Notes under the pieces: generated by a model
The model's database searches: none
What the model was told of the DNA's origin: nothing
What the model saw: the letters and a program-made list of their open reading frames with translations, nothing else
In this document: positions 7,983 to 57,509 of the stretch, one piece after another
How positions within the stretch are numbered: the first letter of the stretch is position 1
Layout of the letters: each line of letters begins with the position of its first letter
NCBI GenBank assembly: GCA_002372375.1
Contig: DFGJ01000021.1
Span: forward strand, 62,394-126,393
DNA: 64,000 nt
Origin: Ruminococcaceae bacterium UBA3753
GTDB lineage: Bacteria; Bacillota; Clostridia; Oscillospirales; Acutalibacteraceae
Direction of reading: 5' to 3'
Made by a program: the position numbers and the translations under genes

Positions 7983-7988
7983 ATCCTT

Positions 7989-8675: not shown

Positions 8676-8944
8676 ATGTATTATTTCTTTAAAATCGATT
8701 TTTTATTCTCTATTTGCCTTGCTTTGTTTAGGTATCTATTCCATATATTCCTAACTGTCTTCTCGATTATCAATGTTTATTGTGAATCTAAATATTTAAA
8801 GGGTGTGATTAAAATGAGAACCGATAATTATCTTTTTTCTTTCCTTTATCTAAGAAGCAACAGTAGTTTTGTGAGACTAAAAACATAAAAGTGAGTTATA
8901 ATATGCCAGATTAAATTTGTTTTTGTGTTAAAAAGGACTTTGTT

Positions 8945-11002: not shown

Positions 11003-11049
11003 ATTTGTTTTTTATTTTCAGTTCACTTATAGGTTAGTGATTAGCGTTT

Positions 11050-12010: not shown

Positions 12011-12365
12011 TTCGATATATTGAGTTATATTTGCACTGAAAGGCTTTTGCGGGTTTGAATCTCGACTTAGATGCTCCGTATGCAGTCTAGTAAGCTAAGC
12101 TGTGAGTTTAGGCGAGGTTGTGCCTTGGGTTGTGCGCTAGTTCTTCGTTTATTTGTTTTCTTTTTATATAAGTTTAAGTATACTTTGTTTAGTGGTTTTT
12201 TTTTGAAATTCTACGAAACTCCGAAGATTGTTTTCTGTATAAGTGAGTTTTTTGTGTGTTTAAATTGTTGAACGAGCAGGGTTGTGGTAGCTATCTCCGT
12301 TATTTAAAGTTAAAAGTTCAGTTTAGTGGTCAAATTTCAGATTCACATAGTTTTAGGGTTGATGG

Positions 12366-15644: not shown

Positions 15645-17003
15645 CTAGCTAATCAGCCCCGGCGAATAATTTATAACACGCCCACTGCATCCAGGACAAC
15701 CGCCCACTCCGTCACTACCCTGAAAAAACCAATAGTTAGGATTATGCTTCGTACCACGGCCTCCTCTTCCGCCTTCTCCAGGAACAAAGGTACAATTTCC
15801 TTTGTTTAAAACTTTTCCGTGATCCGGTTCAACAAAAAAAACATCTGCACCGTTACCTCCCTTGCCACCATCACCTCCGCTTCCTCCCCATAGAAGAAAG
15901 CCAATGGGCGCATAAGCTATCTCGCCACCCTCACCACCGTCAGACGCCTTAGCTACCAAATTTTCTAAAGTCAAACTTCCACTTAAAACTTTAAACAAAG
16001 GTTTACTGCTAATTCCTGCATACCCTTTTCTAGAAAAAACAGGTCCACTACTACTATCGATGAAAGAAGCTTTCGAAGGGGTAAGACCAACTATTTTTCC
16101 TCGTATATCTCTACCATTACTAAAAATTTTCACTTTCACCGTATCGTCGTATTCATAATATGCTTCCTGCACTTTCTCTTCATACGCTGGCACCAAAACA
16201 TCATAATACCTTGTTTGAGAACTACGTTCATTCGAATCACCGCAAATTTCGGTACTTTTTCCACTATCTGTATAAATACTTTCACTTCTTCTCTCAAACC
16301 TTGGTTTGTGATGAACTGTTTTCTCTCTAAATCTTTTATCTTTTCTACCTACAATTATAGATGCATCTGGGAAAATAGACAAAGTGTGCCCATTTAAATC
16401 TAAGTTTGCTCCATCAGGCAATATAAGGTCATTTGTCACACATATATCATCAACCAGTCTAACATTAATTAAACCTTGTTCATCCTTTTTGCCTTTTTCA
16501 AGTGCATCAACCAAATCAGGATAAGTAGCTACCTTAACATAACTATTCTTATCACAAAAATTCCTCGAATAATCTGTGCCAATACTCTGATCAACACAAG
16601 AATCTACGTTATATACCACGTTGTTATAGTCATTTCTTTTACAAGAACCGCGAGGATAATCTGCACTACTTGACCAATCCATACATGAATTTACATTACG
16701 TACTGAATCGTTATAGTCATTTCTTCTACAAGAACCGCTAGAATAATCTACACTGCTGGACCGATCCACACATGAATTTACATTATGTACTGAATCGTTA
16801 TAGTCGCTTCTCCCACAAAAGTCGCGAGAATAAGCTGCATTGCTGCTGGACTGATTAACACAAGAACTTGCGTTACGTACTGCATCGTTATAGTTATTTC
16901 TTCTACAAGAACCGCGTGAATAATCTGCGCCAACGCCAATACATGAACTTTCCAGAGCAGCGGTAAAGAATGGTATAACAAACAATTTAAAGCCTGCCTT
17001 CAT
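15645..17003 (-). CDS. secreted repeat protein: Cys-pair repeats, a beta-helix-like middle and a Gly-rich tail with RTX-like nonamers
   Basis: Signal-peptide-like N-terminus. About 4.5 repeats of ~29 aa (DYSxGSCRRNDYNDSVRNVNSCxD). LDLNGHTLSI is typical of parallel beta-helix adhesins. GGSGGDGGK-GGNGADVFF fits the GGxGxDxUx pattern. Confidence 0.6.
   Translation of the reverse strand: MKAGFKLFVIPFFTAALESSCIGVGADYSRGSCRRNNYNDAVRNASSCVNQSSSNAAYSRDFCGRSDYNDSVHNVNSCVDRSSSVDYSSGSCRRNDYNDSVRNVNSCMDWSSSADYPRGSCKRNDYNNVVYNVDSCVDQSIGTDYSRNFCDKNSYVKVATYPDLVDALEKGKKDEQGLINVRLVDDICVTNDLILPDGANLDLNGHTLSIFPDASIIVGRKDKRFREKTVHHKPRFERRSESIYTDSGKSTEICGDSNERSSQTRYYDVLVPAYEEKVQEAYYEYDDTVKVKIFSNGRDIRGKIVGLTPSKASFIDSSSGPVFSRKGYAGISSKPLFKVLSGSLTLENLVAKASDGGEGGEIAYAPIGFLLWGGSGGDGGKGGNGADVFFVEPDHGKVLNKGNCTFVPGEGGRGGRGTKHNPNYWFFQGSDGVGGCPGCSGRVINYSPGLIS
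16541..16925 (-). repeat. intragenic tandem repeat, ~87-90 bp x ~4.5
   Basis: The block cgttatagtcatttcttctacaagaaccgc recurs at about 16622, 16709, 16796 and 16885. Confidence 0.85.
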
Positions 17004-17859: not shown

Positions 17860-20229
17860 ATGATGCCTGTGGTCAAGACCTCTGAAATGCAAATACTAAA
17901 AAAAAAGATGCAAGAAGAAAGTATACCCTGGAAGATACATATAGTCACTAATACTATATTTTTCACTATAGGTCTATTAATATCTGGTAAAAGTATTTAC
18001 GAAAAATTTTTTCCATTTGGTATAGCACTAGTCACTGGGGTACCATACAAAAACCTTATTCTGTCGTCCGTAGCTTCCTCATTAAGCTATTTAATTACTA
18101 ATGACATTAGTTATTCAATAAAGTACGTAGCAACAGTATTTGCAATATGTGCAGTAAGATGGCTCTTAAAGGACATAAAATTGTCGCACAAATGCTTGTG
18201 TAATTCTATAATGTGCAGCTTGATCAATTTTTTTATGAGCTTCCCCGTATATATGCACGGAGATTCTTCATTTTACATTTTGACAGATATATTTATAGAA
18301 TCCGCACTTGCCGGATCATGCTCATTTTTATTTGAAAAAAGTATAAATATAACTCTAAAATACTTCAAAACTAAATCTAAAACTAAATTTTTGGTAAGAA
18401 ACACTAGCGACTTGTTAATTATTTCAAGTAGTATTTTTGTCGTAACCTTTTCACTTTCTGATTTTAACTTGGGACCCATATCTTTAGGTAATGCAATTTC
18501 TACTTATATTTTATTTTTAATTTGCAGAGCCGGCGGAACTTTATGCGCAGGTGTGTCCTTTATTATTTTAAATTTCATATCAGGGTTTAAACCGTCATCA
18601 ATAAATACGTATGTCAGCAATTATTACAACTTCTCAGTACCTGCAATTTGCATGTTAGTTGTTGGTCTATTTCCAAAGCATTCCAAAATCAAAGTATCCA
18701 TACTGTATATTTTTCTTAATCTAATTTTAAAACTATATTTTTTCTCAGAGATAAACATAGGCATAATAATCTCTAGTTTATATGAATCCATTCTGTCTTG
18801 TACACTTTTACTAATAACACCGGATAACATTTTAAATAAGTTGATAAACTTTAATTGTAATGACGAATTTAAAGCAAATAATTTGTACTGTATCCAACAG
18901 CGTTTAAGCTTAAATCTTAAATATTTATCAGAGTCCTTTAAGAATATTGGAAGCGGATTAGATGTTGTGTCTATGAAAAAAGAAGCGAATAAAAATACAG
19001 ATTTACGGGAATTATTAGAAAAAACAAATGAAAAATTTTGTTCTGTTTGCTCATTAAGCACCTTTTGCTGGGGAAGCAACAAAAATAACACAATAAATTA
19101 TTTAAATAATATTCTTAAGAAAAGAGAAAACAATCTAATGCATGAAAATGAATTTAGTAGCATATGCCCTAGCGTAGAAAAAATTAGAAAGTATTACGAA
19201 TATTTAAATATGGAGAAAAGCATAAAGGACATAGCTCAAATAAAAGTTAATGAAATGAAGGACTATGTTGTAGAACAGTTTAAAGATACAGGATCAATTT
19301 TAAGTAATTTATCAGAAAAAATTAATAACTCGTTTAATTATAATCTTAATGTTTCTGATAAGATTTTAAATATCCTAAGAAAAAACAACATAAACTGCTA
19401 TTATGCTTTTTGTAAAGATTATTTCGATAAAAAGTGGAGCATAGAGATTTCAGTTGATACAAGTGATAAACAGAAATTTGAAAACCTTCGCATTGAAGAT
19501 ATTTTGAAAAATGAATACGGAAAAATATTTAATAGTCCTATATTAATAAACAACTACAAAAAAAGTTTTAAATACATAATCCTCGAAAAAACAAATTATA
19601 CAGTGCGTGTTGACGTCGCACAGCACGTATGCAAAAATGGTGATTTTTGTGGTGATAGTTACAAATATTTTTTCACAGAAGATGGTAAACTAGTTATAAT
19701 TCTAAGCGATGGAATGGGAACAGGAGTAAGAGCAGCTGTTGAAGGAACTTTAGCATGCGAAATTTTGAGTACACTAATTAAATCCCATGTAGATACTGAT
19801 ATCGCACTAAGAATAACTAATACGACCCTTCTTACAAATCCGAATGAAGAATCGCTGGCTGCCATAGATCTGGTAATTATCGACTTAAACACCGGGAATT
19901 CCAGATTTATAAAAGCAGGTGCGGCAAGCAGTATTATAAAGAGTAAAAATGAAATAAAGATTTTAGATGAAGCTTCTCTACCTATTGGCATTTTAAAAAA
20001 TATCGATTATTCCATCAATGATATCAAACTAAAAAATAAAGATAAAATTCTGATCATGTCCGATGGGGCATCTTACCCAAGCAATGACTGGATCGCTGAA
20101 AAACTGAACAGTTGGAAGGGAGAAAATGGTGATCTTGCAAAAAGTATAATAGATGATTCGTTAAAAAAAGCAGAACAAGACAAAGACGACGATATAACAG
20201 TTATAGCGGTAGAGATTTTAAATAGTTAA
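17860..20229 (+). CDS. spoIIE: stage II sporulation protein E (membrane PP2C phosphatase)
   Basis: 789 aa. The N-terminal ~330 aa are polytopic membrane. The C-terminal PP2C domain has CGDSY..., LSDGMGTG and IMSDGA. The start may be the GTG at 17869, which has better spacing from GGGAG. Confidence 0.9.
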   Translation: MMPVVKTSEMQILKKKMQEESIPWKIHIVTNTIFFTIGLLISGKSIYEKFFPFGIALVTGVPYKNLILSSVASSLSYLITNDISYSIKYVATVFAICAVRWLLKDIKLSHKCLCNSIMCSLINFFMSFPVYMHGDSSFYILTDIFIESALAGSCSFLFEKSINITLKYFKTKSKTKFLVRNTSDLLIISSSIFVVTFSLSDFNLGPISLGNAISTYILFLICRAGGTLCAGVSFIILNFISGFKPSSINTYVSNYYNFSVPAICMLVVGLFPKHSKIKVSILYIFLNLILKLYFFSEINIGIIISSLYESILSCTLLLITPDNILNKLINFNCNDEFKANNLYCIQQRLSLNLKYLSESFKNIGSGLDVVSMKKEANKNTDLRELLEKTNEKFCSVCSLSTFCWGSNKNNTINYLNNILKKRENNLMHENEFSSICPSVEKIRKYYEYLNMEKSIKDIAQIKVNEMKDYVVEQFKDTGSILSNLSEKINNSFNYNLNVSDKILNILRKNNINCYYAFCKDYFDKKWSIEISVDTSDKQKFENLRIEDILKNEYGKIFNSPILINNYKKSFKYIILEKTNYTVRVDVAQHVCKNGDFCGDSYKYFFTEDGKLVIILSDGMGTGVRAAVEGTLACEILSTLIKSHVDTDIALRITNTTLLTNPNEESLAAIDLVIIDLNTGNSRFIKAGAASSIIKSKNEIKILDEASLPIGILKNIDYSINDIKLKNKDKILIMSDGASYPSNDWIAEKLNSWKGENGDLAKSIIDDSLKKAEQDKDDDITVIAVEILNS

Positions 20230-22737: not shown

Positions 22738-23925
22738 TCAAGATAAAACAGCATATTTATTTTTTGCACTTAAAATACGATCTAAAGATTTGTCTATCAT
22801 TTCTTCAGATATTGTATCTTTTTCAGTACTTTTAACATTCTTTACAATACTATTATAAAGGCTTTCTAGTTTGTGAAAATCTTTACGACTTTTTAGGGTA
22901 ACTGGAATACTTAAAAGATCGTTACCAGCTTTTATTGCCGTTATAGCAGCCAACTCCCTTCCAAAGTGATCTGAAACTGCTTTCATTTCTAACGCATCTG
23001 TCATTGCTACCCCTCTAAAGCCCAGCTCCTCTCTAAGAAGGCTTGTCATAATACTCTTCGATAAAGTTGCTGGAACAACTATCGCTTTCCCAGCTTTTTT
23101 TGAGTGAATTTTTGTATCGTCGATCTTTGGAAGAGATATATGCGCTGACATAACGAAGTCTACACCTGCATCTATTGCTGCCTTGAAAGGCTTTAATTCT
23201 ATTTCCCTTAGCTCTTCTAATGTTCCAGGAATAACAGGGAGCATATTGTGCGAATCAGAATCCGTATTTCCGTGGCCTGGGAAATGCTTAGCTGTGGCTG
23301 CTATGCCCATCAAATGTAAGCCGTTTATAAAGCTAACACCAAAATCTGAAACTAAATCTGCATCAGCGCCAAAAGACCTTTCCCCTATAACGGGATTCTT
23401 AGGATTATTGTTGACATCTACAACAGGTGCTAAATCACAATTTATACCTATTTCCTTAAGCTCTTTTGCTATTGTCACACCTTTTTCAAAAGCTTCCTCA
23501 GAAGATTCTATTTCTGAATTATTTTTTAACGTTTTTCTACCAAACGCAAAACGCTCTACTTTTCCACCTTCCTGGTCTGTGAATATTAAAAGAGGGGGAA
23601 AATTATATTTTTTAGTTATACTCTGTAAGTCAGAAACTAACTTTTTAGACTGATCTTTGTCTAAGAAGTTATCTTTAAATAAAACAATACTCCCAACTCC
23701 ATACTCGCCAATTAGTTTTTCTAGCAGTGGTCTAGTAACCTTATCAACTTCTGTTATTGCTCTACCATTATTTAAATACCTTATATCTAGAACCATCATT
23801 TGTCCTATCTTCTGGCGTAAAGTAAATCCGTTAGAATCAAAATTTGAGTCAAAACTTGAACCAAAAGAAGAAGGAAACAATAAAAAAAGCACACTTGCAA
23901 AAATTTTTTTAAGAGATTTAAGCAT
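22738..23925 (-). CDS. secreted glycoside hydrolase family 3 beta-N-acetylhexosaminidase (NagZ-like)
   Basis: KIGQMM, DQEGG.V.R and KHFPGHGNTDSDSH motifs with a signal-peptide-like N-terminus. I place the start at the ATG at 23925 because AGGAGGAC lies 5 nt upstream. The track ORF extends to 23982. Confidence 0.8.
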   Translation of the reverse strand: MLKSLKKIFASVLFLLFPSSFGSSFDSNFDSNGFTLRQKIGQMMVLDIRYLNNGRAITEVDKVTRPLLEKLIGEYGVGSIVLFKDNFLDKDQSKKLVSDLQSITKKYNFPPLLIFTDQEGGKVERFAFGRKTLKNNSEIESSEEAFEKGVTIAKELKEIGINCDLAPVVDVNNNPKNPVIGERSFGADADLVSDFGVSFINGLHLMGIAATAKHFPGHGNTDSDSHNMLPVIPGTLEELREIELKPFKAAIDAGVDFVMSAHISLPKIDDTKIHSKKAGKAIVVPATLSKSIMTSLLREELGFRGVAMTDALEMKAVSDHFGRELAAITAIKAGNDLLSIPVTLKSRKDFHKLESLYNSIVKNVKSTEKDTISEEMIDKSLDRILSAKNKYAVLS

Positions 23926-24029
23926 AAACAGTCCTCCTAAATAAAATGTAGTAGTATAAATAAAAAAAGACAAAAAAGGCAAAAACCACGATGATAATTG
24001 CCTTTAAAACGATTATGTACATTTAAAAA

Positions 24030-24311
24030 TTAAACAGATTTTTTCTTTAAATTCGCTATTTTCACGTCCACCCAATTCTCAAACTGCTCATCTGTCATGC
24101 GTGGATCTTTCTGTCCCATATAAGTACTGCAATCTTTTATAGAACATTCACTGCAGTCCTGCCTATTTTTCTTACTTGCACAGTCATAGATTGGGCAAAC
24201 AGCTCCACCTCTGTAAAATACCTTACCCTCGGCCTTGGAGCAACCACCACATTGTGGAAGAGAATCGCACGCAGAACAGTCGGCACCACAAGCTGCTATC
24301 ATCTTTTCCAT
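24030..24311 (-). CDS. Cys-rich DUF3795-like protein
   Basis: 93 aa with CGADCSACDSLPQCGGC...CPIYDC...CSECSIKDC, a spacing typical of DUF3795 as I recall it. Confidence 0.55.
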   Translation of the reverse strand: MEKMIAACGADCSACDSLPQCGGCSKAEGKVFYRGGAVCPIYDCASKKNRQDCSECSIKDCSTYMGQKDPRMTDEQFENWVDVKIANLKKKSV

Positions 24312-24950
24312 AAAAAACCCCCTTAAATTGTAATTATTTGTACCGAAAAAATACCGTACCGTTGAAGTTTAAATTAAAACTTTTTAAAGATCCAGTTAAA
24401 ATTTAGTTTTTATGTAGCAATAAGCGAAGTGCAAAACTTCTGCTTTTGTAAGTCAAAATTTTATCTATTTTGCAAATAGAACAAGAAGTAAAACCCTGCA
24501 GTAAAACATATATTTATAAAAACTAACTAAAGCCTCTTCTACGCTCTAAATAATCTTATATATCTAAGACGCAATTGATAATTGACCAACAAAACAAAGA
24601 CCAGACTATAAATTAAGCCCAAATCATTTATATTCTTGTTTTTTATCTTAAAGAAATTAAAACAATAAATCGAAAACGTTCACAATTTCTGAGTTATCTA
24701 TCCCTAAGAAATTCATCGTTGTTAGCTATAATAACATGTTTATATTTATTGCACTGATTAAAATGTTCAGAATGTTCCATGTATGCAGTTAACAAACTTT
24801 TTAGCCTCCCCACTATGATCTACCAATAACGTCCTCAGAGTTGTCCGGAACAAGGTTGTAACCCAAAAACGATAAATTACTCAGTGGTTGTTTTCCAAGT
24901 GCAAAAGCAAAAGACTAAAAGCAGATTATAAGCTGGAGAAGATTGAATAA

Positions 24951-25420
24951 AAGTACGGCAACTTAGAAATTTTAAAGGGGCAATTAGAATCGGTGCTATT
25001 TTACAAAGAAGCCGCATCATTATCTATCAGCTATTTGCACGCTCGATCCTTTCTCTTTCCGCCTGGGGAGGCATTATATAATTTATTTACAAACTTTGAG
25101 CGTCTAAAGTGCGGCAACTTAGAAAATTCAAAAAGACAATTAGAAGTCGGCGCTGCCTTACAAAGAAGCCACATCATTATCTATCAGCTATTTGCACGCT
25201 CAATCCTTTCTCTTTCCGCTTGAGAAGGCCCTATATAATTTATTTACAAACTTTGAGTATCTGAAGTGCGGCAACTTAGAAATTTTAAAGGGGCAATTAG
25301 AATCGGTGCTACCTTACAAGGAAGCCACATCATTGTCTATTAGCTATTTGCACGCTCGATCCTTTCTCTTTCCGCTTGAGAAGGCCTTATATAGTTTATC
25401 TGCAAACTTTGAGCATCTCC
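24951..25420 (-). repeat. tandem array, ~156 bp x 3; the innermost unit contains the last ~26 codons and stop of tsaB
   Basis: Unit starts (aagtRcggcaacttagaaa) are at 24951, 25107 and 25264. The string tatttgcacgctcRatcctttctctttccgc recurs at about 25033, 25190 and 25344, and the tsaB stop is at 25340. Confidence 0.9.
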
Positions 25421-26086
25421 AGCTTCAGTTCCGCTTTCCAAAAGAGTTTTTGCAGCAAATGCGACGCTTCTAGCTAATTGATATTTAAAACCTGAGTGCA
25501 TAATCCTGATATTTTCTGTTTCTTTTTCAAAATTTTTATTTATGAAATTATAAAAAATATCTGCACCATCGCCCAATAGAATTACATCTTTTTCTTTAAA
25601 ATCCTTTATTTTTAAAAACATATCTTGAAAACTAACAGCATTATCTACAGTTATTCTGAATATCTTCCCATCTTTTACGTGAAATAATGCAGCATAAAGC
25701 TGATCTCTTCTAGCGTCCATGCATGTACACACTACCGCATCTTTTTGATCAATAGCGTTAAAGGCCATCGCATACAAAGTAGAAACCCCTAAAGTTTTTT
25801 TATTTAGTGGTAAAGCCATCCCCTTTATCAGTGAAACACCTATGCGTACCCCAGTGAAAGATCCTGGACCATTGCTTACAGCAAATAGATCTATGTCTTT
25901 TACTGAGAATTGAGAGAGGTCCAGCAAACTCTTTACTGTTGGAGCAAGGGTAGTACTATGGACTAATCCGGAATCCAGGTAAATCTCCCCAACTAGTTTT
26001 TCGTCATCTAGTATCGCGCAGGATGCAACCTTAGCACTCGATTCTACTGCTAATATTCTCAAAACCAGATCTTCCTTTATGGGCAA
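25340..26086 (-). CDS. tsaB: tRNA t6A37 biosynthesis protein TsaB
   Basis: ILAVESS..., GPGSFTGVRIGV, and the C-terminal ...IRPSQAERE typical of TsaB. The track start is TTG at 26086. A TTG at 26062 (LRILAVESS) is an alternative. Confidence 0.85.
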   Translation of the reverse strand: MPIKEDLVLRILAVESSAKVASCAILDDEKLVGEIYLDSGLVHSTTLAPTVKSLLDLSQFSVKDIDLFAVSNGPGSFTGVRIGVSLIKGMALPLNKKTLGVSTLYAMAFNAIDQKDAVVCTCMDARRDQLYAALFHVKDGKIFRITVDNAVSFQDMFLKIKDFKEKDVILLGDGADIFYNFINKNFEKETENIRIMHSGFKYQLARSVAFAAKTLLESGTEAGDAQSLQINYIRPSQAERERIERANS

Positions 26087-26669
26087 CGCCAGTATTGTAG
26101 TAGTATATCCAATTAATTAATTTTTTTAACACACGCAAATATGACCACCACGTCATTTTACTGCTAGTTTGCATGAAATCGAAATCTTTTTTTAAAATAG
26201 AGAAATGTGTACAAGTCAATACCAAAGTATTATAACTAAAAAGTGAAAACATAACGAAAATTAGTGATCTTCAATTTTTGTGTTTATATTTACTGTGTAC
26301 TATTTTTAGAATTAATACTTGCTTATGTGCAATGAACTTATGCATGTCAAGAAGTTTTTATCAAAGTCTTGTTTATCAGTTTTTTATTTCCTGGGGTGAG
26401 TCAAAGGAACGGAGTCTACTTGTAGACATTTTGTAGAGGAGGAAAATATGTAATTTTGTAAAATGAACTGTAAAATTATAAAAACAAAGGTGTATAGCAA
26501 TAAAAAACTCGTATTTAAAAAGAAAACTAAGCTGTAACTCTTTGTACAGACTTAGTAACAACTTCTAGAACAGCACATTCACACCACATGCTATGACGTT
26601 CTTGGAGCGAGAGTTCGTTGGAGATAGGTTCACAATCTGAATTCCCTCCACTGTATATATAGCGGATAG

Positions 26670-27101
26670 CTAGAAATGTTCTATTCCAAAAAAGTCAAAA
26701 TTTCTTGTATTTTTCCCACTATAGGTGATTTTTACTTTTATTGTAGGATATTTTTTGGGGATAAAATCCTCTATATTTTCACTCCACTCTATCAATGTTA
26801 TGCCATTACCTATGTAATCAAAAAAACCAGTGTCGAATAATTCTTCTTCCGAGTTTATTCTGTACATGTCCCAATGATATATGTAAAACTTGCCTTTGTA
26901 GATGTTAATTATGTTATAAGTAGGGCTCGTAACCACTTTGGGGTCTTTCACAGAAAGCCCGTTAGCTAATCCTCTAATGAAGGTTGTTTTTCCTGCACCG
27001 AGTTCACCGTAAAACTGTATTATTTCTGTTCCTGCTAGTTTTTTCGCGAACCGTGCTCCAAGGTCTTCTGTAAATTCTTTTGAGTTACTTTTTATTAACA
27101 C
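26670..27101 (-). CDS. tsaE: tRNA t6A37 biosynthesis ATPase TsaE
   Basis: 143 aa with Walker A GELGAGKTTFIRG, SPTYNI and HWDMYR motifs. GTG start. Confidence 0.85.
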   Translation of the reverse strand: MLIKSNSKEFTEDLGARFAKKLAGTEIIQFYGELGAGKTTFIRGLANGLSVKDPKVVTSPTYNIINIYKGKFYIYHWDMYRINSEEELFDTGFFDYIGNGITLIEWSENIEDFIPKKYPTIKVKITYSGKNTRNFDFFGIEHF

Positions 27102-28130: not shown

Positions 28131-28913
28131 TTATATTTGTGATTTTATTTTATCTAGGGCTGTTTTTTCTAGCCGTGAAACTTGAGCTTGACTTATTCCT
28201 ATTTCTGATGCCACTTCCATTTGCGTTTTGCCCTCAAAAAATCTGAGTTGCATAATCTTTTTTTCGCGCTCCGTGAGTTTTTTGATGGACTCTTTTAAGG
28301 CTATTTCTTCAAGCCAGTTACTGTCTTCATTTTTGCTCCCTATTTGATCCATTACATATATCGTGTCTGTACCGTCCGAAAACACCGGCTCATATAGAGA
28401 GATAGGTTCCACTACGGCCTCAAGCGCCAGTATTAAATAATCTTTTGGAATTTGTAAATTTTTAGCTAATTCGTCTACTGTAGGTTCTTTGTTGTTTTTA
28501 GCCATCAAGGTGTGCTTTGCTTGCATCGCCTTGTAAGCAATATCTCTTAGTGAGCGACTCACTCTGACTGAGTTATTATCCCTTAAGTGACGCCTGATTT
28601 CACCTATAATCATAGGCACACCATATGTTGAAAATCTAACATCCAGCGTAACATCAAAATTATCTATGGCCTTAATAAGGCCTATGCAGCCCACTTGAAA
28701 TAGATCATCCAAGTTTTCGCCTCTGTTGTTAAACTTTTGTATGACGCTAAGAACTAACTTTAGGTTTCCATTAATGAGTTTTTCTCTTGCTAGTTTTTTT
28801 TCTTTCTCATTTCCATTTTTCATTTTCTTTAGGAGTTCAATTTTTTCAGACTCGCTTAAAACTTTTAGTTTTCCGGTATTTATTCCACATATTTCAACTT
28901 TCCGATAGTTCAT
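28131..28913 (-). CDS. sigG: RNA polymerase sporulation sigma factor SigG
   Basis: KVEICGINTGKLKVL, NGNLKLVLSVIQKFNNRGENLDDLFQVGCIGLIKAIDNFD, MIIGEIRRHLRDNNSVRVSRSLRDIAYKA. These match SigG rather than SigF signatures. Confidence 0.9.
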   Translation of the reverse strand: MNYRKVEICGINTGKLKVLSESEKIELLKKMKNGNEKEKKLAREKLINGNLKLVLSVIQKFNNRGENLDDLFQVGCIGLIKAIDNFDVTLDVRFSTYGVPMIIGEIRRHLRDNNSVRVSRSLRDIAYKAMQAKHTLMAKNNKEPTVDELAKNLQIPKDYLILALEAVVEPISLYEPVFSDGTDTIYVMDQIGSKNEDSNWLEEIALKESIKKLTEREKKIMQLRFFEGKTQMEVASEIGISQAQVSRLEKTALDKIKSQI

Positions 28914-29734: not shown

Positions 29735-30320
29735 TAGAAGAAGCAAAGGTTGTGTTCTTTAAAAGGATTTGTTAAATAGGTTTTAGCCTTGACTTGTTAT
29801 AGCAGTAAAGAAACCGATTTATATTTTGGCGCGAATAATGATGTTTTCAATTAGATTCCTTCAGCTTTAATATCTAGTACTTATGAATTCAATACAAATG
29901 TACATCTAACGAATAACAAGGGGGGCGGACCGACTAAAAGAAGCAAAAGTTGTACTCCTTAAAAAGGTTTGTTAAATAGGTTTTAGCCTTGACTTGTTAT
30001 AGCAGTACAAGATCCGATTTATTTTTGGCGCGAATAATGGTGTTTTCAATTAGATTCCTTCAGCTTTAATATCTAGTATTTATGAATTCAATACAAATGT
30101 ACATCTAACGAATGACAATTGGCAGATCGACTAAAAGAAGCAAAAGTTGTACTCCTTAAAAGGGTTTGTTAAATAGGTTTTAGCTTTGACTTGTTATAGC
30201 AGCAAAAAAGCTGATTTGTGTTTTGGTGTAAATAGTGACGGGCTTTTGTTTGGATTTCTTCCGCTTTAATATCTAGTATTTAAATATACGTCTAACGAAT
30301 AACGAGGGGACGGATCGACT
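29735..30320 (+). repeat. tandem array, ~197 bp x 3, upstream of the ABC transporter gene
   Basis: The unit-start motif ctaaaagaagcaaaagttgt is at 29934 and 30131, with a diverged form at 29735. The internal block ggttttagccttgacttgttatagcag recurs in each unit. Confidence 0.9.
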
Positions 30321-30453
30321 TTGGGCTAGATTCTGTGTCTTTCAACAATAGAGTTTTGTAAAAAAATGAATTAGTAATCTTTTGAGGTAACTTTTTTAGA
30401 ACTGTAAGAAAAGGAGATAGTTTTTTTTACGATTAAAAAGAGTGGGGTAGATT

Positions 30454-31917
30454 ATGAAGAATGTTGTTATAATTTTAATATCTTTGTTGTTTATGAATTT
30501 TAATAATAATAATGTTTGTTTAGCAAAAAATAAAGAAACAATAATTATCGGTTTAGATGCCGATTTTCCTCCAATGGGGTTTTACAACGAAAAAAATGAG
30601 ATAGTTGGGTTTGATATTGATCTTGCAAAAGCTGTTGGTAAAGAAATGGGATTTAAAATAGAAGCTCAGCCCATAAATTGGGATGCAAAAGAAATGGAAT
30701 TAAAAACAGGGAAAATAGATGCTATTTGGAATGGGTTAACCTACTCTGAAGAGCGAAATGCAAACATGTTATTAACGAAGCCATATATGAAGACCAAACC
30801 TGTTGTCGTGACAAAAAATGACGCCAATATAAACAAAATAGAAGACCTAGAGGGCAAAACAGTATGTTTGCAAAAAGGCGCGTTAGCGCAAGCATCTTTG
30901 ATTTCGAGCGAAGTTTGTAAAAACGCGAAAGATATCTTCTACCTAGAAACCATGCTGGATTGCCTTAACGAAGTAAAGCTTGGTAAAGTAGAGGCAGCGG
31001 TCGTGGATGAAGTAATTGCCAGATATTATTTAAATATAAATAGCAAAGAAAACTGCTTCAAGATTCTGGAAAAGAATATTCCTGCAGAAGATTATGTTAT
31101 AGCCGTCGCAAGAGGTAATGAAAAACTTAAAAATACTATAGAAGAAGGTTTAAATAAAATAGTAAAGTCCGGTGAGGCTGCTAGGATATCTGAGAAATGG
31201 TTTGGAAAAAATTTAGTCTGCTTTAATGAAGAAGATCAGTCAGCAAAAAAGATCACTGCAGAATCAACTAAAGAAAATAGTGACGTATTTAATGGAATTT
31301 TTAGTGGATTATTAGTAACTTTAAAGTTATTCTTCGCTTGTGTTCTTTTTTCCATACCTCTTGGATTACTGATTTGCTTAATAAGAAGACGCAATATAAA
31401 AATTTTAAACGCTATTATTGATCTTTATACTCTAGTAATTAGAGGCACTCCACTTCTTTTACAAATATTTTTTATATTTTATGGTTTGCCCCTGCTATTG
31501 CCAGCTATGAAAATAAGTAATCGATTTTTAGCAGGATCGGTGGCATTTATTATAAATTACACAGCTTACTTTAGTGAAGTATTCAGAGGCGGAATTAATA
31601 GCATACCGATTGGGCAATGGGAAGCAATAAAAGTACTTAGAATCCCTAAATTTAAAGCCATAGAGAAAATAATAGTTCCACAAAGTTTAAAAGCATGTTT
31701 GCCGTCTATATGTAATGAGGTCATAACTTTAGTAAAAGATACAGCACTTATTTTTACAATTGGCATTGTCGACCTTCTGAGTGCAACAAAAAATGCCGTG
31801 AATATAAGTGCTAATGTCTCTATTTATGGAGTAACAGCTGCAATTTATTTATTTATGTGCTGCATATTAAATATCATATTTAAGTTATTAGAAAAAAGAT
31901 TTAACTATAAAAGCTGA
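30454..31917 (+). CDS. amino-acid ABC transporter, fused substrate-binding protein and permease
   Basis: The N-terminal half is SBP family 3-like (IIIGLDADFPPMGF..., GFDIDLAKAVGKEMG, IDAIWNGLT). The C-terminal half is a polar amino-acid permease (...TPLLLQIFFIFYGLP..., EAIKVLR). Confidence 0.85.
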   Translation: MKNVVIILISLLFMNFNNNNVCLAKNKETIIIGLDADFPPMGFYNEKNEIVGFDIDLAKAVGKEMGFKIEAQPINWDAKEMELKTGKIDAIWNGLTYSEERNANMLLTKPYMKTKPVVVTKNDANINKIEDLEGKTVCLQKGALAQASLISSEVCKNAKDIFYLETMLDCLNEVKLGKVEAAVVDEVIARYYLNINSKENCFKILEKNIPAEDYVIAVARGNEKLKNTIEEGLNKIVKSGEAARISEKWFGKNLVCFNEEDQSAKKITAESTKENSDVFNGIFSGLLVTLKLFFACVLFSIPLGLLICLIRRRNIKILNAIIDLYTLVIRGTPLLLQIFFIFYGLPLLLPAMKISNRFLAGSVAFIINYTAYFSEVFRGGINSIPIGQWEAIKVLRIPKFKAIEKIIVPQSLKACLPSICNEVITLVKDTALIFTIGIVDLLSATKNAVNISANVSIYGVTAAIYLFMCCILNIIFKLLEKRFNYKS

Positions 31918-32123
31918 AGCGATAGAGATACCGCCATTTTGTTTTCACATCGTTTTTCTGAAGTGCAAGGAATCTACAGTAAGATGTTCATATTAGCAAG
32001 AGTGTCGTCGTAGAGTATGAATTAATAGGGAGCATCATCGTGCAAAGATTATTAAGTAAGGGGCAAGTTATGTCAAAAGTAAGAAAATTAAATGTAAAAA
32101 ATTTAGATCCATTAAAAAGATAG
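31918..32123 (+). pseudogene. possible relic of the C-terminal end of an ABC ATPase
   Basis: Directly after the permease stop the frame reads SDRDTAILFSHRFSEVQGIYSKMFILARVSS-stop. With a one-base shift it reads VVVEYELIGSIIVQRLLSKG... This resembles the ...ILFSSH.(L/M)SEV...DR..IL..G.IV..G end of ABC ATPases. Judged by eye only. Confidence 0.25.
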
Positions 32124-32194
32124 AAACATGGCACTTACAAAACATTTTTTAATAAAAAATCTTTAATTATAAATATAAAGGATACAAAGCAGAT

Positions 32195-32824
32195 ATGAAC
32201 ATTATTGAAGTTAAGAATCTAAGTAAACAATTTTTAAATAAGAACATATTTCGCGACTTTAATTTTAGTGCTAAAAAAGGTGAAATAACTGCAATAGTAG
32301 GGCCGTCAGGGCAAGGAAAATCAACGTTTCTGCGAATCTTGGTTGGTCTTGAAAAGGCAGATAACGGCACCATACAGATAAATGGCAAGAATTTATTGAA
32401 GGATGGCGTGTACAACAATGATCGAAAAGAAATTAGTGATATTTTTAAAGACATTTCTATGGTCTTTCAAGAACACAATCTGTTTTTTAATTTAACGGTC
32501 ATTGACAATCTAAAAATAGTAAAGGAAGATATGAGAAAAATAAACAATTTACTAGAGGATTTCGGCCTTGCAGGCAAGGAAAACTTGTTTCCAGCAGAAC
32601 TTTCTGGTGGACAAAAGCAAAGGCTTTCTATAATTCGTTCATTGCTACTGGATCCAAAAATTATATTATTTGACGAACCCACATCTTCTTTGGACAGTGA
32701 AAATCGTGTAAAAATTGCAAATATTTTAAATAAGTTAAAAGAAGACTCTTACACAGTGGTTGTCGTCACTCACGACGAAAGGCTACTGAATTTGGTTGAC
32801 CCAATTATATATCGCATAAAATAA
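32195..32824 (+). CDS. amino-acid ABC transporter ATP-binding protein (short, 209 aa)
   Basis: Walker A GPSGQGKST, signature LSGGQKQRLSI, Walker B ILFDEPTSSLD, and H-loop VTHDE. It is about 30 aa shorter at the C-terminus than typical GlnQ-type proteins. Confidence 0.85.
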   Translation: MNIIEVKNLSKQFLNKNIFRDFNFSAKKGEITAIVGPSGQGKSTFLRILVGLEKADNGTIQINGKNLLKDGVYNNDRKEISDIFKDISMVFQEHNLFFNLTVIDNLKIVKEDMRKINNLLEDFGLAGKENLFPAELSGGQKQRLSIIRSLLLDPKIILFDEPTSSLDSENRVKIANILNKLKEDSYTVVVVTHDERLLNLVDPIIYRIK

Positions 32825-33499
32825 GAGATAAATTAACGGCTTTAAATCGTCATTTTCCCAGGCATATCACTGTGGCAGTATTAAAAAGATAAGTCACAGC
32901 ATCCTGGACTTTAATTCCAAAAAAGCTTACAAAAAACGATACTATTTTTGAACTATCCTCTTTGAATCTTATAGCACTTCAACTTTTAATATTTAGCAAT
33001 TTTAAACGCTACGTTCGCCGTTTTATCTGTAGTACCTAGCCGTACTCGCTTTACTAATTACAGTCCTTGACGGTTGAATTTTCTCGAATTTTTCTTGAAC
33101 AACTTCAAGATGTTCTTTAGATAGTCTATATCTTCAAATTCTTTGTAACCGACATAGTGGATACCGGCCTCATTTATACAGGTAACAAATCCGAATGTCA
33201 CACAGGCTAATCACATAGGAACAGAAAGGAGCGAAGTCATGTAGAGTAAAGTAGGACAAACGCGATACAGTAAAAATTACCTTAAGCAAAACAGCACAAA
33301 CAGCCAAACATGGTAACCACGGACTAAATCCGTCGATTATTTAAGGCTCAGCAACTATTGAAGTGTTACCAAAAAAAGACATCAAACACTCGAAGCGATG
33401 CTCACCTCAAAGCTTCAAAAAATCAAAAAACCAACGGACACTTGTAATCAAATACTAAAATGCCTTTCCACCCAAATGCTCGTATCGCGGCTTTACCTA

Positions 33500-34537
33500 C
33501 TAAACAACACGTGCCCTCTCCTTTCTTACTTTGCTTACCTTTATGCTTCCCACTTCTAGCCTTTTGCCAGTACCTACGGCTACACAATCTAAAGGATTTT
33601 TTGCTATAGTAACATTTATACCAGTATTCTCATTAATTAGACGATCCAAACCAGGGAGGAGTGCACCGCCTCCGCTTAAGGTTATACCACTGTTTATTAT
33701 ATCTCCGGCAAGCTCCGGTGGAGTTAGCTCCAGAGCAGAGCGTATGGCATCTATTATGGTTTCCAAACTGTCTTTCAGGGCGCCCCTAACCTCACCAGAG
33801 TAAATATCTATGCTTTTGGGCAAGCCATCTAACATATTACGTCCTTTTATAGTTATACTCTTTTCTTCGTCTCCTAAATCGTAAGCTGAACCGATCGTCA
33901 TCTTAATGTTTTCTGCCGTTTTTTCACCTACCAACAAGCTGTATTTACGTTTTATATAACTGGCTATAGCTTCATCAAATTTATTTCCTGCTACTTTCAC
34001 AGAACAAGAAGTCACTATGTCTCCCAAAGATATAACAGCTATTTCAGATGTTCCACCACCAATATCTACTATTATGCTTCCAACAGGCTCGGCCACCGGG
34101 AGCCCAGCACCCAAAGCAGCCGCCATAGGTTCGCACATAAGCTCAACGTCCCTCGCACCGGCTTGCCTAGCAGCATCTTCAACAGCCCTCTTTTCAACTT
34201 CTGTAACTCCAGACGGCACGCATATAACAATCTTTGGTCTCCAGCCAAAAAAACCTATCCTGACTATTTTTTTTACAAAATACTTCAACATAGCCGCCGT
34301 CACTTCAAAGTTAGCTATAACACCGTCCCTGAGGGGTCTTACAGCGACTATTGAACCAGGAGTCTTACCTATCATCTTTTTTGCCTCAGACCCAACCGCT
34401 ATAACAGCATCCTTGCTTACATCAACAGCAACGACCGAAGGTTCCCTTAAAACTATTCCTTTGTTTCTTAAATATACCAAGGTATTTGCTGTGCCAAGAT
34501 CTATACCGACATCTTTCGTTTTAAACAATTTAACCAA
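33500..34537 (-). CDS. mreB: rod shape-determining protein MreB/Mbl family
   Basis: GIDLGTANTLVY, REPSVVA, RPLRDGVIA, DIGGGTSE, and GGGALL.GLD..I. No mreC or mreD lies downstream. Confidence 0.9.
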   Translation of the reverse strand: MVKLFKTKDVGIDLGTANTLVYLRNKGIVLREPSVVAVDVSKDAVIAVGSEAKKMIGKTPGSIVAVRPLRDGVIANFEVTAAMLKYFVKKIVRIGFFGWRPKIVICVPSGVTEVEKRAVEDAARQAGARDVELMCEPMAAALGAGLPVAEPVGSIIVDIGGGTSEIAVISLGDIVTSCSVKVAGNKFDEAIASYIKRKYSLLVGEKTAENIKMTIGSAYDLGDEEKSITIKGRNMLDGLPKSIDIYSGEVRGALKDSLETIIDAIRSALELTPPELAGDIINSGITLSGGGALLPGLDRLINENTGINVTIAKNPLDCVAVGTGKRLEVGSIKVSKVRKERARVV

Positions 34538-34962
34538 CTGAGTTCCTTCCTTACTGTCACAAACATTTTATTCTGAGGCAACAATACCAGGGAGAGTATA
34601 GCACAACAATCGAAACTGTGTAAATATATATTGTTGCTTTTCGAAAACATTAAATCCAAGATGACTAAAAAGCACAAGGCAAAAAAGTATTTACTTTAAA
34701 ACCTAAAAAATTAAACGGTCGCCGCAAAGTAAGCTTAAGTGGACAGGGAAGTAATTTAGATTTAACGCTTCTAACTCTTTACTATGATTTAGATCTAACA
34801 ACTCACTCAAGTTTTATCTATAAAGCTGTTTTTACTTCTGCTAGCACTGTGACGAGATTTCTTAAATTTATTGAAGAAATGATCAGTAACCTGCTTAACA
34901 GCCAAAACAGCTGCAGTAGCCCAGCCGGTTACCAGTACTACTATGCTCTTCCGGTTGCTTTC

Positions 34963-35568
34963 TCATTTTGGAATACAGTTACTCTTTGGAATGAAGTGTT
35001 TCTTAAATTCTGGATTATCAGCCAGATGCTTTTTAAAACCTGTAGCCGCGGGTAGTTCTATATGATCCTGGCGTAACAGCTTTTCAACAAAATCTGCAAC
35101 CTCTTTCTCTGCTTTGTCCATCATAGAAATCAGAGAGCCGGTACTCACATCAGGCTTATTTAATCTTTTAAATAAGTTAATAAACTCTTGCGTATTATCG
35201 TCAGGGTCATCAAAAGTATTTACACCAAAAAATCCCAACTGGTTTAAAGTAGAGTAAAACTCTGGAAATGTCCTCTTCTGTTTAGGGCAAAAAGTACGTC
35301 GCAAAAAAGCCAACTCTTCTTCAGTGAAGACAGCACTCTCTGAATCGAGCTTTTTCTTTAATACTTTCCCACAAAGCTTACCAGCAAAACTTTTGTTTCC
35401 TTTTTTTATTTTTTTCAAATCTTCTTTTAATACAGAAGTTAGTAGCCTGTCGCCATTAGAAATATGGTCAAAAATATAGTCAGAGTCAAGCTGATACCGT
35501 ACGTTACGAAGCAAATCAGAATCATCACTTTTAAATATATCGAATTCCGATGTGAAATAAATTAGCAA
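34963..35568 (-). CDS. hypothetical protein, possibly the C-terminal part of a frameshifted gene
   Basis: 201 codons with a TTG start inside a T6 run. It overlaps the stop of the upstream ORF by 7 nt in the -1 frame, and its frame opens only 3 codons upstream of that start. Confidence 0.4.
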   Translation of the reverse strand: MLIYFTSEFDIFKSDDSDLLRNVRYQLDSDYIFDHISNGDRLLTSVLKEDLKKIKKGNKSFAGKLCGKVLKKKLDSESAVFTEEELAFLRRTFCPKQKRTFPEFYSTLNQLGFFGVNTFDDPDDNTQEFINLFKRLNKPDVSTGSLISMMDKAEKEVADFVEKLLRQDHIELPAATGFKKHLADNPEFKKHFIPKSNCIPK

Positions 35569-35960
35569 AAAAGCGCCTCATTAGCGCTTACGTGGTAATT
35601 AGCATATCCCAACTTTTTCTTAGCGAATTCACTCAAGTATTTATCTAACTCTTTTAGGTAAGAAAAATCCTTAATGCTTCCACCCTTGGATTCAACATAA
35701 GAACCTCTAAAGTAAATTCTAGGCTTTTTTTCGCCATCCATCAATCTACAAACAAACGCTGGAGCTTCGATTTTAACTTCTGAACCACTCAAATAAAAAT
35801 TTCCCACCTTGTCGCAAGGTTCGTCGAGACAGTATCTTTCATCTTCCAGCCGAATGTCTTCAAACTTAGGATACTTACCGTCCTCGGCCTGCACAACTGA
35901 ACTTGCAGCGAGGCTTCCAAACACTCCAAGACAACAAGTGGACGACAAAAACTTTTTCAC
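35562..35960 (-). CDS. hypothetical secreted protein
   Basis: GTG start with a GAGG RBS. The signal peptide MKKFLSSTCCLGVFGSLAASSVVQA resembles those of ORFs 55481..56287 and 56504..57292. Confidence 0.5.
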   Translation of the reverse strand: MKKFLSSTCCLGVFGSLAASSVVQAEDGKYPKFEDIRLEDERYCLDEPCDKVGNFYLSGSEVKIEAPAFVCRLMDGEKKPRIYFRGSYVESKGGSIKDFSYLKELDKYLSEFAKKKLGYANYHVSANEALFC

Positions 35961-36352
35961 AAAACAACCTCAGATCACTTTAGAGCTGAGATTGTTATAC
36001 AGTATTGCAAAAAATTATGCAAGCTTAACTCAACCAAGCCAAATGTATTTAGCTGAACGTGTATTTTGTGGAGTTAGAAGAGCAGCATTTATTAGTCTTA
36101 TTTTCATTAAGTGTAGTTACTTTTTATATATATAACTAAATTTGTAAAATTTTAAACAAAAGTATTGATTGTTTTTTCTATCTTTTAGTCTGAGACCTCA
36201 CTCGGCTATTACATATGCGCTACTTTTTTGTAGATTGCATTTTATTATAATTTTAGTGAAATCTTTTGAAACAGGTCTTTTATTTTGTTGTTGCAACTTA
36301 GTTAAGGATATTTTAAAATATAGATAATACTTTTGGATAGTGGTACATAGAG

Positions 36353-37414
36353 ATGGATATTTTAAAAAGAGTTTTTGGATTGTTTTTAATTTTTCTTATA
36401 GCTTTCGTTTTTTCTGCGTGCAAAAGCAAAGTTGATACATCTTGGTTAATTAAGTACGACGGTAAGGTTATGCCGATTGGGATTTTTAAGTATTACCTGA
36501 AGGAATCATACAATAAAGCTGTAGATATTTTGACGGCAGCGGGGGCTTACTCTCAGGAAAGCACAAATGACAGTATAGCAGGTAAAAGTTTCGACTCCTG
36601 GATTAGGGATGATGCCGTAAATTCATGCAAGGATCTGATTGCCTTGGAGTCGCTATTCAATAGTGAGGGGCTATCCTTCAATGAGATGGAAAACAGTGAA
36701 ATGAAAGCGAATGCAGAAAATATTCTAGCAACTATATCGCAAAATTTAGAAAAAAATTATTTAAGCTTAGAAGATGTGAAGAGGGCGTATTCTGAGTGTA
36801 AAGCAATGTACAAAAAACTTTTTGATCACTACTATAAAAAAGGTGGTTCAAAATTTGTAACAGATGATGCCTTACTTGAATACTATAAGCAGAATTATGT
36901 TTCTTATTCCATGGTGACAGTTTATCCGTTCGTGTTTTCAGAATCTTCCGGTGTTGAAAGTGGTAGTAATATTAGTTTGGACCAACTGAATAAGACAAAA
37001 TCTATTGCAGAGGACTATGTTAATCAAATCAATGCTGGTGAGAAGACACTTTCCGATGTTTCTAATACCATCAACGAAAGGAGCGGAAAAGAGTTGGGGC
37101 CCCCTAATGTCGAAACTGTAAACCTCGATAGTGCTAATGTCCCAGAGAACATTTTAATTAAGTTGAAAGCACTAGATGTAGGAAAAGCTGACTATGTGCA
37201 GGTAGATGATTTTTTTGTAATTTTGTATAAGCTGAACATTAACGACAGTTTGCCTGATCTTGGTAAGGAAGATGTAAGAGACGATGTACTGAACTGTATG
37301 AAGCAGAATGAGTTTTACGATATTTTGGCAGAGACGAAAAGAAATATTAGATTTGAAGTAAATGCAGAGTTTTTAAATAGCTTCGTTCCCAAAAATATTT
37401 TTAAAGATTCTTAG
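36353..37414 (+). CDS. putative lipoprotein; a PrsA/SurA-N-like chaperone fold is suspected only
   Basis: Signal peptide ending in the lipobox-like FVFSAC. The rest is hydrophilic and helical. I could find no rotamase motif. Confidence 0.55.
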   Translation: MDILKRVFGLFLIFLIAFVFSACKSKVDTSWLIKYDGKVMPIGIFKYYLKESYNKAVDILTAAGAYSQESTNDSIAGKSFDSWIRDDAVNSCKDLIALESLFNSEGLSFNEMENSEMKANAENILATISQNLEKNYLSLEDVKRAYSECKAMYKKLFDHYYKKGGSKFVTDDALLEYYKQNYVSYSMVTVYPFVFSESSGVESGSNISLDQLNKTKSIAEDYVNQINAGEKTLSDVSNTINERSGKELGPPNVETVNLDSANVPENILIKLKALDVGKADYVQVDDFFVILYKLNINDSLPDLGKEDVRDDVLNCMKQNEFYDILAETKRNIRFEVNAEFLNSFVPKNIFKDS

Positions 37415-38338
37415 ATTTGAGTGATAATGCACTAAAATGCAGAAATTCTGGTTAGCTTGTTTGTAGCTTTAGTGGCCACGCATGATAGTGGCGGGACTTA
37501 AAACGTTTTGGCTACATTGCTGATTTACTTATTTTTGGGGTTGTCCATAGATGTTCCAGGTTGAGATATATTTTTGGGGCACGTTTTTTGAATTATTCTC
37601 TTAAAGCATAACTATATAGTGGAACATTGAATTTTGCTACCCTTTGGCTGTAGTATTTTATTAATAATATATACTGTGCCTGAATTTAGCGCCTTTGTAT
37701 GTTAATTTTTGTAGTTATACTTATGTTATTTGTTGTATTTCGTTAAAAAAATTTATATAGAACTTTTCTTAAAGAGCATACATGCTACAAATTTTTTAAT
37801 ATATTATCAAAATATAATACCATGTTTATATTACAATATACTTCTCGAGAGTCCCTCTGTTTTTCACTTTCTCAACTCTGCGAAACGAGTTTTTAAATCA
37901 ATTTTTACTATCTTATAAGATCTTACTTTTGAGCAAAACTGTATTAAATTGTTCTGGTTTTATTTTTATATATTTAATTCTAATATAAATTGTTAATGTG
38001 ATTATTTTTAAGCATTTTAGGGAAAATATATATATCATTTTTATGGTAAAGATGTACTTGGTTTGATGTTTTAGGTTAGGATTTTTTATGAATATTTTCA
38101 GTACTTCAGTTTCGACATTATAACGAATGTTTGGGATTTTTAACATCGCTGATATAAACAATAACGACTTAATTATATGGAAATAAAGGATGATTTTATA
38201 TTTAAAATTGATTTATTTTATATTAATGGTTATAATGCAGTGCGATGTTTTATGTAGAAAGCTGGAGAATTATTTTCTATATAGTTTTTTTCTATCAGCA
38301 AATTTAAAGTGTAATGGCTAAGAAAGGATTGGTTTTTT

Positions 38339-41350: not shown

Positions 41351-41536
41351 CTAATTTGTATGTGCCTCCAACAGGCGTTTTTGTTAGTCACGGTTATGTT
41401 AATAGTGCACGTTTTTAATTTGAATACAATGTTTTATTTTTGCTCTTTTCGTAGAGCGCTGGGAGATTTATAAATATTTGGGAATTCTTTGCATCATTGT
41501 TTTGCTTTAGTTTTTGTTTTGCTGTAAGGTGTTTTT

Positions 41537-57292: not shown

Positions 57293-57509
57293 GAAACCCT
57301 CCATATTTGATTTGAATGTAATATACATTATAATATATAGATTTTATGATGTATATATTTTACTAGTTATTTTTTAAAAATCTATTTTTTACATAAATTT
57401 TCGTTTCAAATTACACTAAATTTCGTTATATAAAACACTTCCTTTTTTTGATTTTTATATTAAAATTGAATCTGAGAGGTTCATGCCTGAACGAATAGGA
57501 GGACGAGAC

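Follow-up and report, generated by a model that had tools for sequence, protein, structure and literature searches.

The highest tandem-repeat content reported for bacteria is that of Ehrlichia ruminantium, in which such repeats make up 6.3% of the genome, with a mean period of 138.7 bp and 4.8 copies (PMC3287509, Table 4), the corresponding figure for E. coli being 0.38% (PMC3287509). According to the summaries of Collins et al. 2005 and Frutos et al. 2006 in PMC10710844 and PMC3287509, this species has a coding ratio of approximately 64% and shows 'genome size plasticity'. Slipped-strand mispairing has been proposed as the mechanism behind its repeats. In the host-restricted Wolbachia, intergenic arrays (VNTR-141 and VNTR-105) have periods of 105-141 bp; strains with a single period are taken to represent the ancestral state, and hairpins and inverted repeats have been proposed as the triggers of slippage (PMC3287509). 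Promoterless partial copies beside an expressed gene are known as silent cassettes in Neisseria pilS, the Anaplasma msp2 pseudogenes and Borrelia vls, where many divergent cassettes serve variable surface antigens. Truncated gene fragments were reportedly associated with the E. ruminantium repeats by Collins in 2005, and tandem duplications in most bacteria are unstable and quickly lost.

Here we analyze an array of three tandem units at the 3′ end of tsaB in a 64-kb stretch of DNA (64,000 nucleotides, henceforth the window). Our results confirm that the tsaB 3′ end has indeed been triplicated in place, and the array belongs to a genome-wide pattern of such repeats comparable to that of E. ruminantium. 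We put at roughly 80% the probability that it arose by neutral tandem duplication, through slippage or unequal crossing-over, and was tolerated because of its position at a gene end. The features of the locus are as follows, L002 being a related contig described below:

24030-24311: DUF3795 gene, downstream of tsaB
24312-24950, minus strand: spacer between the array and the DUF3795 gene, non-repetitive and A-rich, homologous to the L002 spacer (BLAST, 90.6% identity)
24929-24939: distal arm of an inverted repeat, 12 nt beyond the array
24951-25106, minus strand: unit 1 (distal ghost), pseudo-tail DAQSL-stop-INYIMPPQAERERIERANS-stop-stop, then the downstream part
25107-25263, minus strand: unit 2 (middle ghost), pseudo-tail DTQSL-stop-INYIGPSQAERERIERANS-stop-stop, then the downstream part
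25264-25420, minus strand: unit 3 (proximal), with the real last 26 tsaB codons and stop at 25340-25420
25264-25339, minus strand: downstream part of unit 3, 76 nt of non-coding DNA
25340-26086, minus strand: tsaB, intact, dimerisation subunit of the t6A tRNA complex (TIGR03725, E 3e-42)
25416-25426: proximal arm of the inverted repeat, gene strand GAAGCTGGAGA, inside the tsaB codons EAGD (repeat search, L002 comparison)
26670-27101: tsaE, upstream of tsaB
Junction of units 3 and 2 (slash at the joint): ...GCCGCACTT / CAGATACTC...
Junction of units 2 and 1 (slash at the joint): ...GCCGCACTT / TAGACGCTC...

A preliminary description of this DNA had proposed a 3 x 156 bp array with the real tsaB tail in its innermost unit, and Tandem Repeats Finder (TRF), sequence alignment and TIGR03725 agree on this point. 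TRF detects the array at 24950-25418 (period 156, 3.0 copies, 87% matches, score 747), and the stretch 24951-25420 resolves into three head-to-tail units of 156-157 bp each, contiguous and without spacers between copies; a repeat search places the beginnings of the copies at 24951, 25108 and 25264. When the units are aligned to each other with MAFFT, mean column identity is 93% and pairwise identity is 86.6-89.2%. The sequence said to recur in all three units does so as a 31-mer (exact at 25032 and 25345, with one mismatch at 25189), each occurrence lying one base from the approximate position first given. The adjoining spacer (24312-24950), originally called A/C-rich, contains 39% A, 17% C and 13% G, so that its A-richness is borne out and a marked C-richness is not. 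Two plus-strand ORFs that overlie the array (24993-25223 and 25192-25473) had been regarded as artefacts of the periodicity. Neither has a Pfam match, and the antisense ORF reaches only 46 aa in the single-copy relative, which indicates that these two ORFs owe their length to the periodicity.

The TsaB C-terminus reads ...GDAQSLQINYIRPSQAERERIERANS, followed by TAA TAG, with the TAA stop at 25340-25342. The double stop (25337-25342) is TAA TAG in the window and TGA TAG in L002; the first stop codon has thus been switched between the two, the tail being otherwise conserved.

The closest other TsaB (P0001, 98% identical) is encoded on L002, a contig from a different metagenome assembly and the one close relative that covers the tsaB locus; a further homologue, P0002, is 80% identical to the window TsaB. 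L002 is colinear with the window (tsaE-tsaB-DUF3795), with approximately 94% nucleotide identity through tsaE-tsaB and 91% downstream. It holds exactly one unit (2055-2211), contiguous with tsaB and with colinear flanks on both sides, and all three units of the window align to it. The single unit at the corresponding locus of L002 identifies the array as a local triplication, not an inserted element; half of the unit, moreover, is conserved coding sequence that is single in L002, and hence it is ordinary local sequence that was triplicated in place, from an ancestral single-copy state. In L003 (GCA_978018045.1), whose TsaB is 80% identical, the tail GDAQSLQINYLRPSQAERERIERLSS is followed by unrelated DNA without a repeat, and the comparison shows that the duplicated unit starts within conserved TsaB sequence. 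No unit copies were found in the 64-kb window beyond the three tandem ones. A search of JGI metagenome contigs with the 34-nt core of the unit returned 0 matches, plasmid and phage BLAST of the array region returned none, and a TsaB scan of GTDB representative genomes gave only an unrelated Bacteroidales match. The proposal of a local tandem duplication of the tsaB tail with its downstream DNA is therefore upheld by the single unit of L002 and by the lack of copies in the window, JGI contigs, plasmids and phages, and no sign of a dispersed element inserted at the tsaB end was encountered.

The copies were compared site by site using the single copy of L002 as reference. In the real tail, two of the 79 sites are changed, one synonymously and the other through the TGA to TAA switch of the stop codon. 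The coding-derived parts of units 2 and 1 differ at 5 and 7 of 79 sites, respectively, and the downstream parts at 6-11 of 77 (11 of 77 for unit 2). Small as these counts are, they suggest that the ghost tails diverge about as fast as non-coding DNA. Read on the minus strand, both ghosts keep the frame of the tail, and both carry an in-frame TAA replacing Gln, through a two-base CAG to TAA change. Non-synonymous changes are R to G and A to T in unit 2, and R to M and S to P in unit 1; the unit 2 ghost still matches the TsaB tail in tblastn (88% aa, E 3e-9). The variable sites form a mosaic: the 5′ half links unit 1 to unit 2 through the CAG to TAA change and T88, and the 3′ half links it to unit 3 through A116, a 1-nt deletion and C134, states that neither unit 2 nor L002 has. 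Unequal exchange or gene conversion among misaligned units would leave such a mosaic. Divergence between units (11-13%) equals that of each unit from L002, which means either that the array is not young or that L002 has lost copies; the copy numbers of 3 in the window and 1 in L002 belong to different lineages, not to strains, and the units are old. The locus thus displays the contiguous copies, the single copy in a relative and the one intact gene that identify a local duplication over a gene 3′ end.

The arms of the inverted repeat match at 10 of 10 positions in the window and 11 of 11 in L002. They bracket the ancestral 156-nt unit almost exactly and form the closing stem of the MFE fold. 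By our rough estimate, the chance of finding such a pair within 15 nt of both unit borders is ~1e-3 or less. No convincing bracket of this kind was seen at the other arrays of the window, where there are just AT-rich pairs at the ecfA array, and sequence comparison with L002 reveals no clear microhomology at the junctions of the tsaB array. A search for functional signals in the array, based on Rfam, a terminator scan, folding and shared motifs, detected none. Rfam returned no match at E ≤ 1 over 24200-25600, a consensus scan found 0 terminator-like sites in 23900-26400, and promoter-like sites near the array occur at shuffle expectation. The downstream parts of the units show no more structure than shuffled sequence (z = -0.07 to +0.52), and the array as a whole shows even less than its shuffles (z = +2.4). 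A structured RNA or intrinsic terminator was rejected on these grounds (no Rfam model, no GC hairpin with a T-run, z close to 0), and so was a CRISPR array, which would have 24-48 nt repeats with unique spacers in place of contiguous 156-nt units.

The window contains further arrays, listed here together with one tandem repeat that lies in frame within an ORF:

11047-11987, plus strand: ybaB array, ~7 x 123 bp, intergenic, 45 nt after the ybaB stop
16546-16928: in-frame 87-nt (29-aa) tandem repeat inside ORF 15645-17003 (minus strand)
29735-30320, no strand: sigG array, ~3 x 200 bp, intergenic, between the divergent sigG and an ABC-transporter gene
40299-41379, plus strand: fusA array, ~8 units of ~135 bp, with a higher-order period of 409-411 bp
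58672-59111, plus strand: serS array, the last ~125 nt of serS (57483-58796) and downstream DNA, duplicated once
60200-60940, plus strand: ecfA array, ~3 x 226-235 bp, intergenic, 44 nt after the ecfA stop

The fusA array had been described as of the same design as that of tsaB, and this proves accurate: it begins inside the gene end, ~120 nt before the fusA stop (fusA, 38339-40420), and at least five ghost tails are recognizable in it at the protein level (tblastn). Its higher-order period corresponds to 3 units, and unit identity is 63-95% for the fusA and ybaB arrays. The serS ghost, absent from the preliminary description, lies at an offset of 228 and retains 67% nucleotide and 54% aa identity over the last ~40 codons; it is an older ghost tail. 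Each flanking protein was run against its own spacer by tblastn, which recovered two ghosts of the tsaB tail, at least five of the fusA tail and one of the serS tail, and no gene fragments in the ybaB, ecfA and sigG arrays. The different arrays have no sequence or k-mer of 10 nt or more in common, and no shared motif. Of the six intergenic arrays, five begin between -125 and +45 nt relative to a stop codon, and for 6 of 7 arrays the closest gene end is a 3′ one, which hints at a bias (p ~0.06). The ybaB array splits the dnaX-ybaB-recR cluster, separating ybaB from recR, which are normally adjacent. The ABC-transporter gene beside the sigG array encodes fused solute-binding and permease domains, and the 452-aa product of ORF 15645-17003 (minus strand) has no Pfam or NCBIfam match. 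The six intergenic-type arrays account for 5.5% (TRF score ≥ 50) to 6.7% of the 64-kb window. Its coding fraction is ~61-63% and its median spacer 493 nt, as estimated from a hand-curated ORF list that is an approximate gene call. The genome sample behind the repeat and coding figures is 64-76 kb, and the next 10 kb of scaffold beyond the window hold no array.

Relatives show the same duplication process, to a lesser extent. A species whose EF-G is 91% identical carries one fusA ghost tail (offset 153) in L013, L014 and L015, which are three separate assemblies from different pipelines; in L014 the ghost tail occupies 11990-12242, and a decayed array of ~5 x 432 bp (7036-9194, 60-63% identity) fills the 3-kb spacer between rpsG (S7) and fusA. 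L011, with an EF-G 94% identical, has no fusA ghost. The first ~35 codons of its folC-like gene (Mur ligase family) are duplicated just upstream of the start (18846-19169), and duplications therefore also hit gene 5′ ends. The fusA copies thus number ~8 in the window, with 0 ghosts in L011 and 1 in L014, these being separate lineages.

That the window is a short-read metagenome scaffold, that the only other contig crossing the tsaB locus (L002) has one unit and that the other assemblies break off at the array would all fit an assembly artefact, in which co-occurring strain variants were chained in tandem by the assembler or scaffolder. We regard this as very unlikely in view of the Logan contigs, which are k=31 assemblies of individual runs. 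Those of the same strain are 100% identical to the window, and every one of them breaks off within one of the arrays:

L026: ends at 11190
L017: spans 29797-25346
L022: spans 24985-20030
L010: spans 30132-40454
L025: ends at 60688

The breaks at 25346 and 24985 are the exact positions at which 30-mers become common to units 3 and 1, which share a 31-mer (25345 = 25032) and a 43-mer (24956 = 25269); further breaks (11190, 29797, 30132, 40454 and 60688) fall inside the ybaB, sigG, fusA and ecfA arrays. Since k=31 contigs break exactly at the shared 30-mers, precisely as predicted if units 1 and 3 are both in the reads, the repeats are present in the raw reads with their respective flanks. No unit is near-identical to the variant seen in L002, all being ~90% identical to it, and the ghosts share derived changes that include a nonsense codon not expected in a live strain allele. 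The fusA and ybaB arrays, with 7-8 units at 63-95% identity, cannot be strain bubbles, and a fusA ghost tail is seen in another species in each of three assemblies from different pipelines. Together, the shared nonsense codon, the lack of an L002-like unit and the 7-8-unit arrays elsewhere make the chaining of strain variants unlikely, the exact tsaB copy number being that of one short-read scaffold. Because all Logan contigs end in arrays, these arrays must also fragment routine short-read assemblies of the organism.

Granted that the units exist, they could still be there for a reason. Selection might have kept the array as a 3′ untranslated or regulatory element with a function in the tsaB transcript, made up of repeated modules for stabilization, termination or protein binding, or as a small RNA: it has persisted to 11-13% divergence without deletion, a long-range inverted repeat closes the tsaB region and most intergenic arrays (five of six) begin in the same narrow interval around a stop codon. 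The lack of any Rfam match at E ≤ 1 or terminator-like hairpin, unit folds at the level of shuffled sequence in an array that is itself less structured than shuffles, the fact that L002 manages with one copy, the lack of a motif common to arrays and the even spread of substitutions over coding-derived and downstream parts argue otherwise, and a functional role appears decidedly improbable. The adjacency of the ghosts to the real tail, their 88% protein identity to it and the mosaic patterns that indicate exchange between units also recall silent cassettes yielding C-terminal variants or a truncated TsaB, in the manner of a phase-variation switch. Yet the ghosts differ from the real tail by just 2-3 residues and a stop, the real tail is the most conserved copy, and the same design is found at fusA and serS, where variation would be harmful; TsaB, a cytoplasmic housekeeping protein of the t6A pathway, is not known to need variation, and we give such a switch hardly any credence. 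The 10-11-nt inverted repeat flanking the unit would, finally, suit a MITE- or REP-like element, mobile or dispersed, that landed at the end of tsaB and was amplified there. Half of the unit, however, is the bona fide TsaB C-terminus, present in homologues at 80% identity; the codons that contain the proximal inverted-repeat arm are conserved in L003, where the distal arm is missing; and the window, JGI metagenomes, plasmids and phages yielded no further copies. Being neither dispersed nor foreign to the flanking gene, a MITE- or REP-like element is refuted within the present data, and its probability is close to negligible.

Under neutral tandem duplication, the reading that we favor, a 156-nt segment over the tsaB stop (81 nt of coding tail and 76 nt of downstream DNA) would have been duplicated in tandem and later expanded to three copies via slipped mispairing or unequal crossing-over, after which the two untranslated copies would have decayed neutrally as pseudo-tails. 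TsaB is left unchanged because the body of the gene continues into the first copy, and the downstream copies go untranslated because they lie beyond the stop codon. The array would need no function, and is probably neutral, as one product of a lineage-wide tendency to make and keep tandem duplications of 120-430 bp, in a genome whose spacers are very long. Its location could then reflect survivorship: duplications over gene ends or between genes leave one intact copy and would be tolerated, and those inside genes would be removed unless in frame. With frequent generation and slow deletion, arrays would be expected to pile up in spacers, some of them overlapping gene ends. Neutrality accounts for a 3′ bias only if duplications at 5′ ends are also assumed to do more harm; the bias could stem from selection against extra copies of promoters or of N-terminal fragments, or else from a termination-coupled mechanism.

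Set against the described systems, the window most resembles E. ruminantium in its periods above 100 bp in non-coding DNA (123-235 bp here), in the share of repeats (5.5-6.7%, vs 6.3%) and in coding density (~61-63%, vs ~64%). Periods of 100-300 bp at several percent of the sequence and a coding fraction of 60-65%, both characteristic of that genome type, are thus found together in the window. The hosts differ, E. ruminantium being an alphaproteobacterium and obligate intracellular pathogen and the window belonging to a Clostridia lineage that keeps sporulation genes. The repeats of E. ruminantium have an average internal match of ~92%, and their copy number varied within the sequenced isolate, whereas the units of the window are 63-90% alike and the copy numbers (3 vs 1) are those of lineages 6-10% apart. 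Wolbachia shares the intergenic setting and the range of periods with the window but its periods are 98-99% identical within and between strains, by concerted evolution, and do not include gene ends, its repeats making up just ~1-1.6% of its genomes (PMC3287509). With generic bacterial tandem duplications, the arrays have in common the head-to-tail arrangement without spacers, the single-copy relative, the mosaic units and the higher-order periods; they differ in their persistence, with divergence beyond 10% at tsaB and beyond 30% at serS and in the L014 spacer. Silent cassettes are matched only in the promoterless partial copies beside an expressed gene, for the genes here are housekeeping ones and the copies are nearly identical, decaying and interrupted by stop codons.

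The host belongs to the class Clostridia, is uncultured and apparently lives in the rumen. The best named matches of its EF-G are Clostridia and Oscillospiraceae MAGs, and the window contains the sporulation genes for SpoIIE (17860-20229) and SigG (28131-28913). In L011, a TLC-family ATP/ADP translocase (2621-4132) adjoins rpsL upstream, which suggests kinship with the 'small genome clade' of Acutalibacteraceae. The members of this clade, which includes ruminant MAGs, are putative energy parasites (PMC10579323), and the paper describing them makes no mention of tandem repeats. One may speculate, though we consider it doubtful, that the lineage belongs to this clade of putative intracellular energy parasites and has convergently acquired an E. 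ruminantium-type genome in which units of 120-240 bp are added preferentially at 3′ ends. The start of five of the six intergenic arrays close to a stop codon would then point to duplication coupled to transcription termination, or to replication-transcription encounters where genes end, and not to random slippage filtered by selection.

Taken alone, the tsaB array is a harmless pseudo-tail, and its main interest lies in the genome-level parallel. Together with the fusA, serS and intergenic arrays, it points to a second, phylogenetically independent bacterial genome with ~60% coding sequence and ~6% long-period repeats, a state earlier considered exceptional to Ehrlichia ruminantium. A Gram-positive parallel would help decide between weak selection in host-restricted populations and a specific mutational mechanism. 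On the practical side of annotation and assembly, the array creates spurious ORFs, breaks short-read assemblies and could mislead gene-end calls.

The preliminary description had also remarked that tsaB is not followed by rimI. The absence is real, and among window ORFs of at least 90 aa judged to be real genes (shadow ORFs excluded) none matches the acetyltransferase/RimI family. A link to the array does not hold: relatives without the array have a DUF3795 gene (L003) or the gene of an AAA protein (L006) after tsaB, and because they also lack rimI there, its absence is a lineage trait unrelated to the array.

Gene order around fusA also departs from that of relatives. In the window, fusA has no rpsL-rpsG upstream, an unknown 353-aa ORF and mreB being found there, and in L011 and L014 rpsL (S12) and rpsG (S7) are retained, with 2.5-3 kb of spacer DNA between them and the downstream fusA; the window lineage has a broken or stretched-out str operon. 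No tRNA genes were found in the 64-kb window, in which the sole Rfam match at the gathering threshold is a small bacterial SRP RNA (51275-51372, minus strand).
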